Of a stretch of 59,696 bases of DNA, positions 2,646 through 52,093 are shown one piece after another. Numbering within the stretch: position 1 is the first letter of the stretch; every line of letters starts with the position of its first letter. The position numbers were made by a program, and so were the translations under genes. Below the pieces are notes generated by a model that was not told the DNA's origin, searched no databases, and saw only the letters and a program-made list of their open reading frames with translations. Source of the stretch: a bacterium. Its GTDB lineage: Bacteria > Patescibacteriota > Minisyncoccia > Phycocordibacterales > UBA1550. The stretch covers positions 1 to 59,696 of the forward strand of contig JAUSES010000058.1 in assembly GCA_030649835.1 (NCBI GenBank). The letters are read 5' to 3'.

Positions 2646-4055
2646 ATGAAGTACATATCGACACGTGGAAAAGGCGGGATATTGGGTTTTCCAGAGGTGG
2701 TACTTGCAGGACTCGCAAAGGATGGAGGCCTGTATGTTCCCGATCACTTTCCAAGGGTAACGAAAGACGAAATTGATCAATTTTGTAAATATGAGTACCA
2801 TCAAGTAGCATTTGCGATTATGAAAAAGTTTGCTCCTGATATGAATGCGAGCAAGCTTTGGACTGCGGTGCGCAATTCTTACAAACCGGAAATCTTTGGA
2901 AACGTCAATAACGGTGATAATGCTTTCGAAATCGTTCCAATCCATAAGCTTGACAACAATTTGTTTTTGGCACGACTGAGCAATGGACCAACCCTAGCGT
3001 TTAAAGATCTTGGGCTTCAGCCTCTCGGCCATTTGTTTGAAACGGTTTTGAGCGGCAAGAACCTCAATGTCCTCGGCGCAACTTCTGGAGACACTGGTTC
3101 AGCTGCAATACGAGCGATGCTTGGACGCAAGGGTATTAGTGTTTTTATGCTCTCACCTCGTGAGGGAATGAGCGCTTTTCAATCGGCTCAAATGTGGGGG
3201 GTTAACGATGAGGCGATACACAATATCGCAATCAGGGGTTCGTTTGACGACTGCCAAAACATTGTAAAGTTGATTAATGCTGATGCTGAGTTTAAGCAGA
3301 AGTATAGTCTGGGCGCTGTTAATTCGATTAACTGGGCCCGCATTGCCGCCCAGGTACCGTATTACTTTCGTGCGTATTCTCGGGCTTGTGGTGAAGCAGG
3401 GGGTCAGGTTGATTTTGCAATTCCTACAGGTAATTTCGGAAACATCTACGCAGCTTATGTCGCAAAGATGATGGGCTTGCCTATTCGCAATTTGATCCTT
3501 GCAACAAACGAAAACGATGTATTGCACGAGTTCTTCGTTACTGGCATTTATCAGCCACGCTCGAAGACTATCACTACATCGAGCCCTTCTATGGACATAA
3601 CCAGTGCATCGAACTTCGAGCGTTACATTTATCACCTCTTGGGTGGGGATGCGGTGCGAGTTGCAGGACTCTGGCGTGAACTGAAGGATACCGGCAGATT
3701 TGACTTATCACACCTGTTGAATGAAATTAACGCCACCGGCATTACGTCTCATTCTATCAGTGAGGCTGATTCATATGCTGTCATCCGCGAAACTTACAAT
3801 CAGTATGATGTAATTATTGATCCACATACTGCTATCGCGATGAGTGCGGGACGGAGAATGATAAATGACGGTGTTCCGATGATTGTTATGGAGACCGCAC
3901 AACCATGCAAGTTTGATGAGACTATATCAAAGGTTCTTGGCACAACTGCTCAAGTTCCATCTGGTATGAAAGGAGTAATTAATGCCGAGCAGTTCTTTAC
4001 GGTACTGGATCCTGATGCTGAACAGGTGATGGACTTCATTCGTCAACGGGCATAA
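2646..4055 (+). CDS. thrC: threonine synthase
   Basis: MKYISTRG...GLAKDGGLYVP N terminus and PLP-enzyme body (FKD, GDTGSA). Start moved to ATG at 2646. Confidence 0.92.
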   Translation: MKYISTRGKGGILGFPEVVLAGLAKDGGLYVPDHFPRVTKDEIDQFCKYEYHQVAFAIMKKFAPDMNASKLWTAVRNSYKPEIFGNVNNGDNAFEIVPIHKLDNNLFLARLSNGPTLAFKDLGLQPLGHLFETVLSGKNLNVLGATSGDTGSAAIRAMLGRKGISVFMLSPREGMSAFQSAQMWGVNDEAIHNIAIRGSFDDCQNIVKLINADAEFKQKYSLGAVNSINWARIAAQVPYYFRAYSRACGEAGGQVDFAIPTGNFGNIYAAYVAKMMGLPIRNLILATNENDVLHEFFVTGIYQPRSKTITTSSPSMDITSASNFERYIYHLLGGDAVRVAGLWRELKDTGRFDLSHLLNEINATGITSHSISEADSYAVIRETYNQYDVIIDPHTAIAMSAGRRMINDGVPMIVMETAQPCKFDETISKVLGTTAQVPSGMKGVINAEQFFTVLDPDAEQVMDFIRQRA

Positions 4056-4734: not shown

Positions 4735-4743
4735 TGCGACTTG

Positions 4744-5150
4744 TGGAGATGGGGGGAATCGAACCCCCGTGCAGATGATGTTCTTCGTGGAATCTACTGT
4801 GCGTAGAATAATTATTTTGGGTTTAAGTAGTTTGTGTATAAATTATTCTAAATCACAAATTACCGATACTCTATGTTTTTTCACTTTGTAGAGTCATTCA
4901 AAGTGATGAGCCCTCTTTTTATATCACCCAGAATTCCCTAGAGGGCGTACTGAATCTGAGTGCTGTTTAGGCTACGAAAGCGTAAGCAGGAGCAAAGGCG
5001 TTAGCACCAAAATATGGTGATACGATAGCCTTTGCTTTTGCAACGAGGTTGTTTTTTGCAACTAGGTTGGGTTCGAGATTTAACGAGATCTCGAGCATTC
5101 TCGGCATAGCACCAAGAAGAGGGAATCGCCTGTCTAGGCCGATCATCCCC
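4744..5150 (-). ncRNA. ssrA: tmRNA (transfer-messenger RNA)
   Basis: 5' GGGGATG pairs with 3' CATCTCC, including a G3:U70 pair, with discriminator A. T arm is GGGGG-TTCGATT-CCCCC. Internal tag frame reads ...AKAKAIVSPYFGANAFAPAYAFVA-TAA. smpB is adjacent. CCA is not encoded. Confidence 0.9.
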
Positions 5151-10679: not shown

Positions 10680-10973
10680 TTAGTTAGTATATCATGTTGT
10701 GTTAATGTCCCAATGGAAGGTTTCAGTTTTTCCTTTTTTGGTATACTATGGGAACTAATTCATATATGTTTGAATTTTTTGTCAGCACGTAGCCGAATTA
10801 GCAAATTCGCCCCGGGCCAGTTGGTGGTCAGCCCGTGCTTCACCCTAGTGGGTGAAGCACGGAGCTTATAATGACAAACGAGGAGCATGCAAGAAAGTAA
10901 CCATTCTTGCAATGTCCGAGTGCCGTCATTATATGTAATCATATAATTTCAAAGGAGGGATTAGTAAATAGTG

Positions 10974-11047
10974 TCCGCCCATCAGGACTCGAACCTGAGA
11001 CCGCGTAGATATAAGCTACGTGCTCTAACCAACTGAGCTATGGGCGG
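10974..11047 (-). tRNA. tRNA-Ile with genomically encoded UAU anticodon
   Basis: Hand-folded cloverleaf: acceptor CCGCCCA/TGGGCGG, D arm GCTC-AGTTGGTTA-GAGC, anticodon arm CGTAG-CTTATAT-CTACG, T arm TCAGG-TTCGAGT-CCTGA, discriminator A. 74 nt, no CCA encoded. Confidence 0.85.
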
Positions 11048-17121: not shown

Positions 17122-17165
17122 ACTATACACGTATAATATACTATAGTATATTATACGTGTATAGT
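17122..17165. repeat. 44-nt AT-rich perfect palindrome with TATAAT boxes on both strands (family F3, compact copy)
   Basis: CTATACACGTATAATATACTA|TAGTATATTATACGTGTATAG checked base by base. Between divergent genes. Confidence 0.9.
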
Positions 17166-18692: not shown

Positions 18693-19355
18693 ATGAGCGC
18701 AAAAAGCGTATGTGATGCAATAGGAAAAACCCACGAGTTTATGCTTGCTCTCAAAAAGGCAGGGTTTGATGATGGGCTTTTCCAGCAAACAATCAATTCC
18801 AGAGGCAACAAACTTGCTAAGGCGATGTATTCTGCCGTTACTGGTGGAGCACAGGTGGATGATCGGTTTGAGTTGATCAACACTTTCAGCATTGTTGTTC
18901 CGAAAAACTATGACCATGCAACGCAGCTCTCTTCGTTTAATAAAAAATACCGCAAGGAGTTTTATTATTACAACGAGGCTATCACTGACAAGAACTATGC
19001 CAATGCCACGACAAAGCTCGAGCCAGGGCGTAGCCTCAAGGTGAAAGTTTTCCAAATCAAAAAGACGGTCACATCTGAAGACTGCTTGGAGTACTTGCGT
19101 TCGCAAAAAGCTATTTTTGTTGGTGCTCAGGGCGCAAGCCTCGCTTACGAGCAGGGTAAAGGAGAGCTTCCCATTGGTCGGTGGACGGCGTCCTTTGATG
19201 AAAAAAATGCACTCTGGGCCGACGGCGGCCACGGGGTGCCGCGCCTCGACCGCGACTCGGGTGGCGGTTTCGAGTTCTACCTCGGCTCCTTCGTGGACGG
19301 CTGGGGTGACGGCCGCTGCCTCCTTTGCTTCTGCGACGAGTCCTCAGACGCTTAG
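18693..19355 (+). CDS. DGR target (variable) protein
   Basis: The C-terminal 40 codons are the VR. ATG at 18693 follows GAAAGGA. No signal peptide or TM helix visible. Confidence 0.85.
   Translation: MSAKSVCDAIGKTHEFMLALKKAGFDDGLFQQTINSRGNKLAKAMYSAVTGGAQVDDRFELINTFSIVVPKNYDHATQLSSFNKKYRKEFYYYNEAITDKNYANATTKLEPGRSLKVKVFQIKKTVTSEDCLEYLRSQKAIFVGAQGASLAYEQGKGELPIGRWTASFDEKNALWADGGHGVPRLDRDSGGGFEFYLGSFVDGWGDGRCLLCFCDESSDA
19218..19337 (+). repeat. DGR variable repeat (VR)
   Basis: 120-nt alignment to TR at a fixed offset of +468. 21 internal mismatches, 20 at TR adenines. Confidence 0.9.
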
Positions 19356-19393
19356 TATCTTTGCTCGTGCTTGAAATCTTAGACTCTTAGTCC

Positions 19394-19428
19394 TTAGCCC
19401 TCCGATTTATCGGAGGGCTAAATTTTTG
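19394..19428 (+). terminator. hairpin/terminator downstream of VR
   Basis: TTAGCCCTCCG-ATTTA-TCGGAGGGCTAA followed by a T run. Confidence 0.65.
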
Positions 19429-19685
19429 TTAATTTTTTGATATACTTATACTCGGATAGTAGATGTGCATACGGCTACGGCTTTATGCAATCGAATTCTC
19501 GTGAAAGGATTTCTGCGAGTGGCTCATCGGGTACTTCTTTGTGAGTGAGAGCAACCTTTTATGAAAAAATAAATAAGTCGGTGCAGTACGCTGGTGAGTT
19601 TTTATACTCCAAATAAAATACAGAGAGTGACCGGTGTTGCTCTCGGTGGAATGGAAGGCGTATTGTACATTGCAAAGTAGGTCAC

Positions 19686-19805
19686 GCCGACGGCAACCAC
19701 AGGGTGCCGAACCTCTACCGCAACTCGGATGGCGATTTCAAGTTCAACCTCGGCAACTTCGAGAACGACTGGAATGACGACAACTGCCTCCTTTGCTTCT
19801 GCGAT
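19686..19805 (+). repeat. DGR template repeat (TR)
   Basis: Rich in AAC codons (frame reads ...NLYRNSDGDFKFNLGNFENDWNDDNCLLCFCD). The 3' 21 nt are identical to VR (IMH-like). Confidence 0.9.
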
Positions 19806-19822
19806 TCATTCAATTTCTTCCC

Positions 19823-20225
19823 CTATTTGTTAGGGGAAGTTTTGTCTCCGAGATTTTTCTTCCACCCACCGAGCATGCGGCCGACCTCATCAAGGTATAG
19901 AATAAGTGCTCCGTACTGCGTGTGATTGAGTATCTTTTGTTCCCACCCGAGTTGGAGGAAAAATTTTAATAGGTCAGTTTTTCCTATTGCTTGGGACACG
20001 AGAGAAAGTTTTTCAAATTTATCATAAGCAAAACATGCCCGAAATATCAACTCAAGAATTGAGAGGAACGTGTCATCAATTTTTATACCAATCGTATCAC
20101 GGTCGACACGTTTTAAGTTTGCTAGGTGAGTATGCCACGTTTGGTATGCTTCCTTTGCGCGTACCAGTACGAGCGGGGTCTGTACGGGGGGGGGGTAACT
20201 TTATAGTATTTTTATGTTCACTCAT
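19823..20225 (-). pseudogene. avd: DGR accessory variability determinant (Avd, four-helix-bundle family), reading frame interrupted in a C10 run
   Basis: The frame downstream of the run reads PLVLVRAKEAYQTWHTHLANLKRVDRDTIGIKIDDTFLSILELIFRA...YGALILYLDEVGRMLGGWKK. The only ATG (20225) is in the +1 frame upstream of the run. A 9-C run would give an intact 133-aa protein. Confidence 0.7.
20186..20195. repeat. G10/C10 homopolymer inside the avd 5' region, 18 nt upstream of the RT ATG
   Basis: Counted directly: 10 consecutive G on the plus strand. Confidence 0.95.
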
Positions 20226-21197
20226 AAATATCAAGATATCATATCTCTCGAAAATTTACTTGCGACATGGGATCGTTTTGTTCGTGGTAAGCGTCACAAA
20301 AAGGATGTCATTGCATTTCAATTAAATCTTGCAGATAATCTCATAGAACTTCACGGTTCGCTTAGAGATAGAACATATAAGCATGGTGGATATCACGCAT
20401 TTAATATCTCTGATCCAAAACCGAGGAATATTCACAAGGCTACTGTGCGAGACAGGGTGCTGCATCATTTAATATACAAAGAATTATACCGTTATTTTGA
20501 CTCCCGTTTTATCTACGATTCATTCTCTTGCAGAAAAGGTAAGGGCACCCACCGCGCACTCGATAGGTTTAAATATTTTGCAGGACAGGTATCGAAAAAT
20601 TACACACGCACCTGCTATGTACTGAAGGGGGATATTAAAAAGTTCTTTGCAAGCATCGACCACGTGGTGCTGATGAAAATACTTGAGCGACATATTGAGG
20701 ATGGGGAATTGCGTGCTCTTTTGCGTGAAATAGTCTCGAGTTTCCATTCAGCTATTCCTACTATTGGCTTACCTCTTGGTAATCTTACCTCACAACTTCT
20801 GGTGAATATTTATATGCATGAGTTTGACATGTACGTGAAGCAAGAACTCAGAGTAAAATATTATATTCGGTACGCTGATGACTTTGCGGTTCTATCGAGT
20901 GATAAAAAGTATTTAGAGGAGTTATTACCGGAATTTCATTATTTTTTGAACAACAAATTACACCTTTCCTTACATGAAAATAAAGTCTACATCAAGACGT
21001 ACGGATCGGGGGTAGATTTTTTGGGATGGGTACACTTTCCTTACCATCGGCAGATTAGAACTGCTACCAAGAAAAAGATAATAAAGAAACTGAGGGGGTA
21101 TCCGAAACCCCAAACAATAAACTCATATCGTGGGGTGCTGGGTCATGGGAATACGCATAAGGTTCAAGAGAGAGTAGGGGTTTTCCGTTTTTTTTAA
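20214..21197 (+). CDS. DGR-type reverse transcriptase
   Basis: N terminus ISLENLLATWDRFVRGKR, LPLGNLTSQLLVNIYM motif, YADD catalytic box (IRYADDFAV). Confidence 0.93.
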   Translation: MFTHKYQDIISLENLLATWDRFVRGKRHKKDVIAFQLNLADNLIELHGSLRDRTYKHGGYHAFNISDPKPRNIHKATVRDRVLHHLIYKELYRYFDSRFIYDSFSCRKGKGTHRALDRFKYFAGQVSKNYTRTCYVLKGDIKKFFASIDHVVLMKILERHIEDGELRALLREIVSSFHSAIPTIGLPLGNLTSQLLVNIYMHEFDMYVKQELRVKYYIRYADDFAVLSSDKKYLEELLPEFHYFLNNKLHLSLHENKVYIKTYGSGVDFLGWVHFPYHRQIRTATKKKIIKKLRGYPKPQTINSYRGVLGHGNTHKVQERVGVFRFF

Positions 21198-51398: not shown

Positions 51399-51416
51399 GG
51401 GGGGGGGTGATATAAT
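51399..51416 (+). promoter_or_regulatory. G9 homopolymer abutting an extended -10 element (TGATATAAT)
   Basis: Nine G at 51399..51407, then TG-A-TATAAT at 51408..51416, 39 nt before ATG 51455. Confidence 0.45.
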
Positions 51417-51454: not shown

Positions 51455-52093
51455 ATGAAAAAAATTATTCTTATCGTAATCGGAATTCTCCTCGTTGCTC
51501 TTTTGGGAAGATTAGGATGGGCGTATTATCAAATAAAAACAGATTTAGGTTTTTATTCTGTCGACATTGATATTGGTGGAGGGGTCGAAAATCCTGCTAA
51601 GTTTTCTGTCAATGGAGTAGATGCACAGAAAATCACCGTAACGGCTTTTTCTGTTCCAGCAAATGTTATCGCGAATCCCGTCACCAGCCAAGTCAAATCA
51701 GAAATGGATAAATATGGCGTTGATCTCTACACACTTAAGCAAGGAGTAACAAAGATGGTAAAAAATATAGATGGAATAAGCCGCATCATAGTGTATACAA
51801 GAAGTATGAATAGTATAGAAAGAGAGGTGAATTCCTCTCGTCCTGATGGATCTAGTACTCAATTAACCGCCACGATAGATTTAGACGCAAAAGATAAATT
51901 ACCGCTAGCCATAAAAGATATGGAAGACAAATTTGCTGTAGACTGCAAAAATAGTTCAACCAAAGAATGTTTGGGGTCTAAAATGATACTAGATTACATA
52001 AAGACAAACTGTGTGGTGATTCAAAGTAATGAAGAAATAAGTGCCTGTATGGTTGCTGGCGTAATGAAGGCTTGGGCAAACCAAGCTCGGTAA
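51455..52093 (+). CDS. hypothetical membrane-anchored protein
   Basis: N-terminal TM helix (IILIVIGILLVALLG). No family recognised. Confidence 0.5.
   Translation: MKKIILIVIGILLVALLGRLGWAYYQIKTDLGFYSVDIDIGGGVENPAKFSVNGVDAQKITVTAFSVPANVIANPVTSQVKSEMDKYGVDLYTLKQGVTKMVKNIDGISRIIVYTRSMNSIEREVNSSRPDGSSTQLTATIDLDAKDKLPLAIKDMEDKFAVDCKNSSTKECLGSKMILDYIKTNCVVIQSNEEISACMVAGVMKAWANQAR

Follow-up and report, generated by a model that had tools for sequence, protein, structure and literature searches.

The stretch of DNA analyzed here, 59,696 nucleotides of contig JAUSES010000058.1 (GenBank assembly GCA_030649835.1, from a Patescibacteria genome; hereafter the window), contains between positions 18693 and 21197 a group of parts that a preliminary description had taken for a complete diversity-generating retroelement (DGR) with an atypical gene order. 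The locus raises the question of whether these parts indeed form a DGR, how they compare with DGR types already known, and how the accessory protein Avd could be supplied from a reading frame that has no canonical start codon. We conclude with high confidence that this is a genuine, chromosomal DGR of a Patescibacteria (candidate phyla radiation, CPR) bacterium with the architecture termed B3. As a DGR it is ordinary and adds one more case to the CPR B3 type known from earlier work. Near-identical cassettes occur by the hundreds in CPR genomes, and the value of this particular locus is in what the comparison across 80+ relatives exposed, namely three clade-wide features for which we found no description: a structured RNA domain 5′ of the template repeat, a repeat tract at the start of avd, and an array of CTTNG pentamers. 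None of the three was found in Wu et al. 2018 (PMC5758913) or in the rest of the literature searched.

Identity and layout of the retroelement

The cassette is composed of the following parts.

18693-19355, plus strand: target (variable protein) gene, open reading frame (ORF) of 220 aa, with ATG at 18693 preceded by AAGGA
19218-19336, plus strand: variable repeat (VR), 119 nt, the last 40 codons of the target, in phase
19686-19804, plus strand: template repeat (TR), 119 nt, with 29 adenines, 7 AAC codons and 19 variable codons
19823-20197, minus strand: avd, open frame of 124 codons plus stop (TAG at 19825-19823), Avd-like end to end
20214-21197, plus strand: DGR reverse transcriptase (RT), ORF of 327 aa with an RVT_1 match

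The identification is carried first of all by the repeat pair. In the 16-24 kb region, VR and TR are the sole long direct repeat, with 82% identity over 119 nt and a spacing of 468 nt. Of their 21 mismatches, 20 have an adenine on the TR side (14 A>G, 3 A>C and 3 A>T), the remaining one being a T>G at 19248; the hypergeometric probability of at least 20 out of 21 mismatches falling on the 29 TR adenines is 7.8e-15. The C-terminal VR of the target gene and the cognate TR 468 nt downstream, both of which had been proposed in the preliminary description, are confirmed by these data, VR being in phase at the 3′ end of the target ORF. The TR adenines occupy codon position 1 (10 of them) and position 2 (19) and never position 3, and the 19 variable codons give TR a coding capacity of ~2.6e16 possible protein variants. 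The last 21 nt of VR (19316-19336, CTGCCTCCTTTGCTTCTGCGA) match TR exactly, past the last variable adenine, and the flanks then diverge; judging from its placement, judging also from the diverging flanks, the identical blocks in VR and TR may correspond to IMH and IMH*, the boundary of mutagenesis, as expected of a DGR. No further VR-like copy was found in the window on either strand, even with adenines treated as wildcards.

For the comparison with relatives, one genome per species was scanned, which yielded at least 599 matches, and 80 loci, all from CPR-type metagenome-assembled genomes (MAGs), were kept; related loci are designated by L-numbers (L001, L084, etc.), and some of the avd codon counts given below cover 85 loci. 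Between the window and its two nearest relatives (L084 and L085), TRs differ at 9 positions and VRs at 23-24, and of these VR differences 9 coincide with TR differences, 13-15 are on shared TR adenines and at most one is elsewhere. The VR-to-VR differences at shared TR adenines thus point to an independent diversification in each lineage. Mismatches between a relative's own VR and its own TR (at adenines/elsewhere) amount to 19/2, 14/0 and 15/1. As read from the sequence, the A-specific VR substitutions are a footprint of past diversification.

The second line of evidence is the RT, which carries the LPLGNLTSQ and YADD motifs noted in the preliminary description at residues 186 and 220, respectively, and matches Pfam RVT_1 with E = 4e-22. 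The nearest solved structure is the Bordetella-phage DGR RT (bRT, PDB 8ub7; E = 4.3e-37), whereas the best match among other RT classes is a group II intron RT (8.8e-18), followed by a retron-type RT (1e-16). Being closer to bRT than to either of these classes, the RT belongs by its sequence with DGR RTs, and the clustering with group II intron or retron RTs that the preliminary description had put forward as a counter-indication was not borne out by these structure-sequence matches. More than 8000 homologs of the RT are found at E < 1e-20, the closest having 70-86% identity, and the few that are named come from MAGs of Nomurabacteria, Paceibacterota and Minisyncoccota. One observation could be read in favor of a group II intron or retron RT accompanied by a repeat of chance or recombinational origin: no NCBIfam model passes on the RT, and the best of them is a group II intron RT/maturase (E = 1.6e-39), far under the 300-bit cutoff. 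Such a reading is effectively refuted, and we assign it a negligible probability, considering that bRT is a far better match than any group II RT, the mismatches are A-specific (p = 8e-15), an Avd homolog adjoins the RT, a cassette with its own A-biased TR/VR pair is present in 65/65 relatives, and no intron RNA family is detected by Rfam. Overall, the DGR proposed in the preliminary description stands on the A-specific TR/VR pair, the affinity of the RT to bRT, the Avd homolog and the C-terminal VR.

The target protein has no match in Pfam or NCBIfam, and every one of its 261 homologs is hypothetical. Its AlphaFold2 (AF2) model, built from 52 homologs, has a pLDDT of 85.7. C-type lectin domains make up nearly all of the top Foldseek matches of this model in both PDB and BFVD, none of them significant (best E = 0.03, prob 0.9, with weak TM values of ~0.3-0.45), and the C-terminal part of the target probably adopts a C-type-lectin-like fold, as suggested by the model.

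What did not hold is the atypical gene order. The arrangement TR-(avd)-RT, with parentheses indicating the reverse strand, is defined as architecture B3 in Wu et al. 2018 (Wu, Zimmerly et al., NAR; PMC5758913), where it makes up 90% of the CPR set, so that this layout had already been catalogued for CPR DGRs. As cited in the same paper, the CPR/DPANN DGR set is that of Paul et al. 2017. In the window, avd occupies the space that separates TR from RT and is read from the other strand, converging with the TR RNA and diverging from RT. The window shares with the published CPR B3 DGRs the order and strands of the parts, a Patescibacteria host, a short unannotated target protein and a chromosomal location, and does not differ from them in layout (PMC5758913). 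The same is observed among the relatives: an Avd homolog is found by tblastn directly upstream of RT on the opposite strand in ~76 of the 80 loci, and all 65 loci with enough upstream sequence (65/65) have their own A-biased VR/TR pair in the same geometry, with VR ~1 kb and TR ~530 nt upstream of RT, and with roughly 15-75 nt (most commonly ~20) from the TR end to the stop codon of the convergent avd.

Reading frame of avd and the repeat tract at its 5′ end

The completeness of the element, also claimed in the preliminary description, is upheld only in part. All of the listed parts are present in their places, but avd has no canonical start, and a run of ten cytosines between it and the only ATG upstream puts this ATG out of frame. 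Within the frame 20197-19826, the first 49 codons include no ATG, GTG or TTG, and a TAA is located just upstream. The ORF that begins at a canonical start (TTG at 20050; 20050-19823) is only 75 aa long and matches just the C-terminal half of Avd models, whereas the full frame is matched by NF033474 over positions 4-104 of 104 (E = 2.6e-13) and by PF22296 over positions 11-106 of 107 (39.5 bits). The assignment to the Avd family applies to the full frame on the minus strand, which has no canonical start. A search of PDB sequences with Avd gave no meaningful match. Between the window and L084, avd shows 46 synonymous and 8 non-synonymous differences (dN/dS 0.023), and its dN/dS values against the three nearest relatives (0.023-0.034) are as low as those of RT; this strong purifying selection argues that avd is not a decayed pseudogene.

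Two further features are needed to follow the possible routes of avd expression.

20186-20195, G10 on the plus strand (C10 on the avd strand): simple-sequence repeat tract at the avd 5′ end; distance to the RT ATG downstream of it, 18 nt
20223-20225, minus strand: sole upstream ATG for avd, the reverse complement of the RT His4 codon, one base out of the Avd frame

The ATG at 20225-20223 would be in frame with a tract of C9 or C12 or after a +1 ribosomal shift, and avd starting there would overlap the RT start head-to-head by 12 nt. The RT start is conserved as MFxHKY, the antisense of its His4 codon being the candidate avd ATG (20214-20225), and in loci that are in frame (e.g., L001, L013, L024) avd and RT overlap head-to-head by the same 12 nt, an overlap that leaves no intergenic room for two divergent promoters.

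With the window sequence as it stands, avd can be expressed only by way of slippage at the C10 tract or from a non-canonical start. Avd could thus be supplied through slippage or by weak initiation at a non-canonical codon; alternatively, avd may have been lost recently or its frame may have been misassembled. Recent loss would mean that avd of this sub-clade normally starts at the GTG for the second Val of PLVLVR, that in the window this codon has mutated to GTA, and that the cassette, deprived of Avd, is starting to decay. Indeed, the avd start assigned by gene callers in nine out of nine nearest relatives is a GTG at one of the two Val codons within P-L-V-L-V-R, which gives 113 or 115 aa, whereas the window has GTA at both (the GTG start of the relatives corresponding to GTA at 20164-20162), the sole near-cognate start being CTG at 20167-20165 and the NCBI annotation a 58-aa fragment; the single non-A mismatch between TR and VR is also compatible with decay. 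We nevertheless consider a recently disabled DGR unlikely: the avd frame is intact over 124 codons with a dN/dS of 0.023 against L084, the RT ORF is intact, the RNA domain described below has a score of 119 bits, the top of all loci, and the GTG is not conserved clade-wide. As a universal avd start, the GTG at the second Val was rejected, since of the 85 loci only 28 and 22 have GTG at the two Vals and the Pro-Leu codons before them show synonymous variation; it is possible as a start for the nearest sub-clade only. An alternative genetic code that would rescue avd was also rejected, the stop just upstream being TAA and the long ORFs being normal in code 11.

No G/C run in the window is longer than the G10/C10 tract, and chance would yield 0.04 runs of this kind. 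On the RT strand, nearly all loci have a G-run of 7-15 nt (by eye) that precedes the RT start by 9-57 nt; L026 and L031 have (GT)n in its place and L079 has (GA)n, corresponding to (AC)n or (TC)n on the avd strand. Since these dinucleotides stand in for poly-C in three loci, it is the repetitiveness and not the coding that is conserved. A systematic count of poly-C tracts of at least 7 nt covered 71 loci and gave lengths of 7, 8, 9, 10, 11, 12, 13 and 14 nt in 4, 7, 16, 27, 13, 2, 1 and 1 loci, respectively (mode 10). A canonical start upstream of the tract is in frame in 19 of the 71 poly-C loci (27%), which is indistinguishable from the 1/3 of random phase, and a 1- or 2-nt change restores the frame in all poly-C loci. 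An in-frame upstream start is present in 9/10 tract-less vs. 21/74 repeat-bearing loci (Fisher p = 3e-4). The Pro-Leu codons upstream of VLVR vary synonymously and are therefore translated, so that translation appears to enter upstream of PLVLV.

If the frameshift were an assembly error, the true tract would be C9 or C12 and avd an ordinary gene of 133-134 aa starting from the ATG at 20225. Long G/C homopolymers are error-prone in short-read MAGs, in one relative (L045, ~3900-4000) the assembly breaks down into Ns and a scrambled poly-C right at the tract, and 9 nt is the second commonest length (16/71 loci). However, the three nearest relatives, obtained from independent assemblies (ENA, Logan and NCBI), have tracts of C11, C11 and C10, all out of frame with the ATG, and sporadic error is insufficient to account for 52/71 loci being out of frame; an artifact of this kind appears improbable. 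The failure to call avd in several relatives together with the break of L045 at the tract makes the automated annotation of the avd/RT junction unreliable in this clade. In several RT clusters (P0029, P0055, P0071 and P0075) gene callers lengthen the RT ORF by 50-70 codons upstream, across the tract and avd.

Another explanation, which extends the identification of the locus as a DGR and is not exclusive of it, is that avd is gated by a hypermutable tract: translation would start at the ATG 20225-20223, and Avd would be produced only after DNA slippage, transcriptional slippage or a +1 shift on CCC-C, so that DGR mutagenesis would be stochastically switched or throttled. We regard this as a real possibility, although one with less than an even chance. 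The conservation of the tract position in 71 loci with lengths of 7-14 nt (mode 10), the (AC)n or (TC)n substitutes in three loci and the contrast in upstream in-frame starts between poly-C (19/71) and tract-less (9/10) loci are all in line with gating, as are the recovery of the frame at all poly-C loci by a change of 1-2 nt and the synonymous Pro-Leu variation between the tract and VLVR. The same can be said of the poor conservation of GTG at the Val codons (22-28 of 85) and of the low dN/dS of the window avd (0.02-0.03) although it has no GTG. Other observations speak for caution. Tract length does not vary among near-identical contigs (G7 in 5/5), a weak test with a short tract and few copies; an apparent 4-nt offset of the tract among contigs with identical RT was traced to the loss of TGAG within the L091 avd. 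Homopolymer lengths in MAGs are prone to error, which makes ON/OFF calls at single loci unreliable, and all nine nearest relatives have, downstream of the tract, a GTG that gene callers accept. The tract could instead serve the RT promoter or a plus-strand RNA. Finally, the correction required is +1 in some loci and -1 in others, which disfavors a single programmed frameshift. A hairpin beside the tract was considered as a frameshift stimulator and dropped: it is strong in some loci (e.g., L002) and not conserved in the nearest relatives.

Simple-sequence contingency loci, such as genes with poly-G/C tracts in Neisseria, Haemophilus and Campylobacter or the poly-C of Bordetella fim promoters, provide a familiar precedent for a gate of this kind. 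The clade of the window resembles them in having a homopolymer (7-14 nt) where an ORF begins, in a short divergent promoter region, and in that the length varies between species-level relatives, dinucleotides are swapped in and about 1/3 of the copies are in frame. It would be unlike them in that the gated gene encodes a component of a mutagenesis machine and not a surface antigen. To our knowledge, the host phylum is not known for phase variation, and we found no report in the literature searched that ties DGR avd genes to homopolymers, frameshifts or phase variation. We tentatively suggest, as a rather doubtful but testable extension, that the clade-wide poly-C/dinucleotide tract is a slippage switch, with Avd and targeted hypermutation available only in the part of the population or the share of transcripts in which slippage restores the frame, and that together with the 5′ RNA domain it defines a CPR-type DGR ribonucleoprotein with a distinct mechanism and regulation. 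If true, this would place a contingency locus in control of a diversity generator; avd being out of frame in ~70% of assemblies leads to the testable idea that hypermutation itself is stochastically switched.

Structured RNA and other non-coding elements

Of the non-coding parts of the cassette, the structured RNA 5′ of TR, the stem-loop past TR and the CTTNG array had been overlooked in the preliminary description. In the order of their positions, these parts are as follows.

19351-19397, plus strand: array of CTTNG pentamers starting at 19351, 19359, 19378, 19386 and 19393, mostly 8 nt apart, on the VR side only
19394-19428, plus strand: intrinsic-terminator-like hairpin of the target gene, 12-bp stem TTAGCCCTCCGA/TCGGAGGGCTAA followed by ATTTTTG (z = -4.3)
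19438-19446, plus strand: extended -10-like box TGATATACT, at a place where TATAAT/TATACT is conserved in alignments
19467-19668, plus strand: structured 5′ domain of the TR (DGR) RNA, seven helices by RNAalifold with covariation
19467-76/19479-88, plus strand: helix P1
19500-08/19555-63, plus strand: helix P2
19514-16/19551-53, plus strand: helix P3
19522-32/19535-46, plus strand: helix P4
19581-92/19657-68, plus strand: helix P5
19595-99/19606-10, plus strand: helix P6
19623-31/19636-44, plus strand: helix P7
19561-69, 19576-83 and 19612-22: invariant single-stranded blocks of the 5′ domain, AUGAAAAAA, AGUCGGUG and AAUAAAAUACA, respectively
19817-19846, plus strand: 9-bp stem-loop past TR (CTTCCCCTA-TTTGT-TAGGGGAAG) with a UUUUGU tail, overlapping the last codons and the stop of avd on the other strand

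A highly conserved non-coding sequence of ~230 nt runs up to TR. RNAalifold analysis of 40 loci predicted in it seven helices with 55 pairs, 44 of these pairs having compensatory changes. The paired state is found in 95.9% of the cells of the 5′ domain, vs. 37-48% when the partners are slid by 1-3 columns, and double changes are found in 417 cells vs. 47-87 in the slid controls; the observed values were reached by none of 500 shuffles (0/500). A covariance model of the P5-P7 half (a sub-model of 114 positions) gave exactly one match per locus, on the RT strand and just upstream of TR, in 44/44 held-out loci with upstream sequence, among them all three viral contigs and relatives whose RT identity is 58-61%. 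Its only match in the window is at 19557-19669, with 119 bits, the highest of all loci. A search of 19340-20230 against Rfam 15 revealed no family that reaches or nears the gathering score, and the 5′ domain is thus without an Rfam match. Paired compensatory substitutions in helix P6 are seen in L090.

Helix P5 is ~17 nt upstream of TR, where it would be well placed to act as a stop for cDNA synthesis. A pairing of AUGAAAAAA (19561-69) or of AAUAAAAU (19612-19) with the U-tail past TR, considered as an analog of the cPRT-stop, was dropped, both sides being invariant, and a systematic search for a covarying long-range helix gave none. Neither the priming site nor the cPRT-stop duplex had a recognizable counterpart in the window.

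The stem-loop past TR is kept as CTCCCnnnn/nnnnGGGAG followed by TTTTnTCTTG in ~60/65 loci, and four of its six alignable pairs (4/6) are compensatory. Handa et al. described putative 9-bp Avd-binding stem-loops just downstream of TR in 207/278 DGRs, CPR members included (bioRxiv 10.1101/2023.10.23.563531). The stem-loop of the window fits this description and, by analogy, is a candidate for the Avd-binding stem-loop and/or the terminator of the TR RNA.

On the VR side, a hairpin with a T-run equivalent to that at 19394-19428 is found ~50-60 nt past VR in most relatives; in the window this hairpin could double as a post-IMH inverted repeat. The box TGATATACT is likely the promoter of the TR RNA, as judged from its agreement with the consensus. 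A sigma-70 scan returned promoter-like sites no more commonly than in shuffled sequences, so that the promoter assignments rest only on the conserved -10-like boxes. The CTTNG pentamer occurs 224 times in the 75 nt after VR across 67 loci, vs. 23 expected (ten times background), and only 16 times in the same window after TR; 78 of its 157 intervals are of 8 nt. The array, confined to the VR side, is a candidate for the mark by which the recipient site is recognized in cDNA homing, a signal that has long been unknown.

Proposed mechanism and comparison with the Bordetella phage DGR

Taken together, these elements are compatible with the following sequence of events. A discrete RNA of ~400 nt would be transcribed from the promoter just past the target terminator and would consist of the seven-helix 5′ domain (for which the covariation was observed), the 119-nt TR and the 9-bp stem-loop with its U-tail. 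By analogy with the Bordetella system, RT-Avd would bind this TR RNA via the flanking structures, and RT with Avd would reverse-transcribe TR, misincorporating opposite adenines, as its homology to the Bordetella phage enzyme suggests. The cDNA would then replace VR at the 3′ end of the target, recoding up to 19 codons of a probably C-type-lectin-like ligand-binding domain, a step whose footprint is seen in the VR/TR mismatches and whose course is presumed. The 5′ RNA domain provides in this respect a definite model, open to testing, for ribonucleoprotein assembly in the DGR type that is most abundant in the environment.

The BPP-1 DGR (mtd-avd-TR-brt; Handa et al., PDB 8ub7) shares with the window the A-specific footprint, an AAC-rich TR, the VR at the target C-terminus, an RT related to bRT (4e-37), a homolog of Avd and, immediately past TR, a 9-bp stem-loop. 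It differs in that its avd is upstream of TR on the same strand, whereas in the window avd is downstream of TR on the other strand, and in that it belongs to a phage tail-fibre locus, whereas the window DGR is chromosomal. The main structural difference from the phage system is the 5′ placement of the RNA domain: in BPP-1 the large structured RNA (the 140-nt Sp) follows TR, whereas in the window a domain of ~200 nt precedes TR and only the stem-loop and the U-tail come after it.

Several points weigh against the interpretation of the locus as a DGR working in this way. The Avd HMM scores are under the curated cutoffs (39.5 vs. 40 and 50 vs. 80), and avd is without a canonical start codon. The priming site and the roles of the RNA elements are modeled on Bordetella, whose structured RNA is on the other side of TR, and the roles of promoter and terminator are consensus-level predictions. 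The lectin-like fold of the target is suggestive, not proof, considering the weak Foldseek matches. Furthermore, two scans of metagenome contigs for strain-level relatives, one with a tract-spanning pattern and the other with an A-wildcarded VR/TR pattern, gave 0 matches.

Genomic setting and additional observations

The genes flanking the cassette encode an M3 peptidase, a sugar transferase, an epimerase, a PAP2 phosphatase and SecD. The gene order Bac_transf - target - avd - RT - epimerase - PAP2 - SecD is common to the window, L084 and L085, the conservation extending to the whole neighborhood, and this synteny with the two nearest relatives indicates that the cassette is chromosomal and vertically inherited. 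The clade was found on only 3 viral contigs vs. the at least 599 genome matches. In a different relative (L086; GCA_034680565.1, contig JAXOUH010013585.1, 1474-3981) the same cassette is inserted between secY and adk, within the ribosomal-protein/secY-adk-map cluster, and the cassette has therefore changed its chromosomal site over evolutionary time. The neighbors of five near-identical copies on JGI metagenome contigs (L088-L092) are a resolvase and a ParB/methyltransferase/recombinase gene, a setting suggestive of a mobile element.

RNA genes of the window include a tmRNA (4743-5150) and a tRNA-Ile with anticodon TAT (10973-11047), the only Rfam families found in it. TGA stops are scarce, terminating 3 of 39 long ORFs vs. 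19 for TAG and 17 for TAA. A perfect 44-nt palindrome without a spacer (17122-17165; ACTATACACGTATAATATACTA / TAGTATATTATACGTGTATAGT) is located between the divergent M3 peptidase and sugar transferase genes and may be an operator or a bidirectional promoter element. The second-longest G/C homopolymer of the window, an intergenic G9 at 51399-51407, abuts an extended -10-like box (TGATATAAT). This box precedes by 39 nt a gene (51455-52093) whose small protein product has a hydrophobic helix at its N-terminus, and the site may represent a second slippage-prone promoter in the genome.

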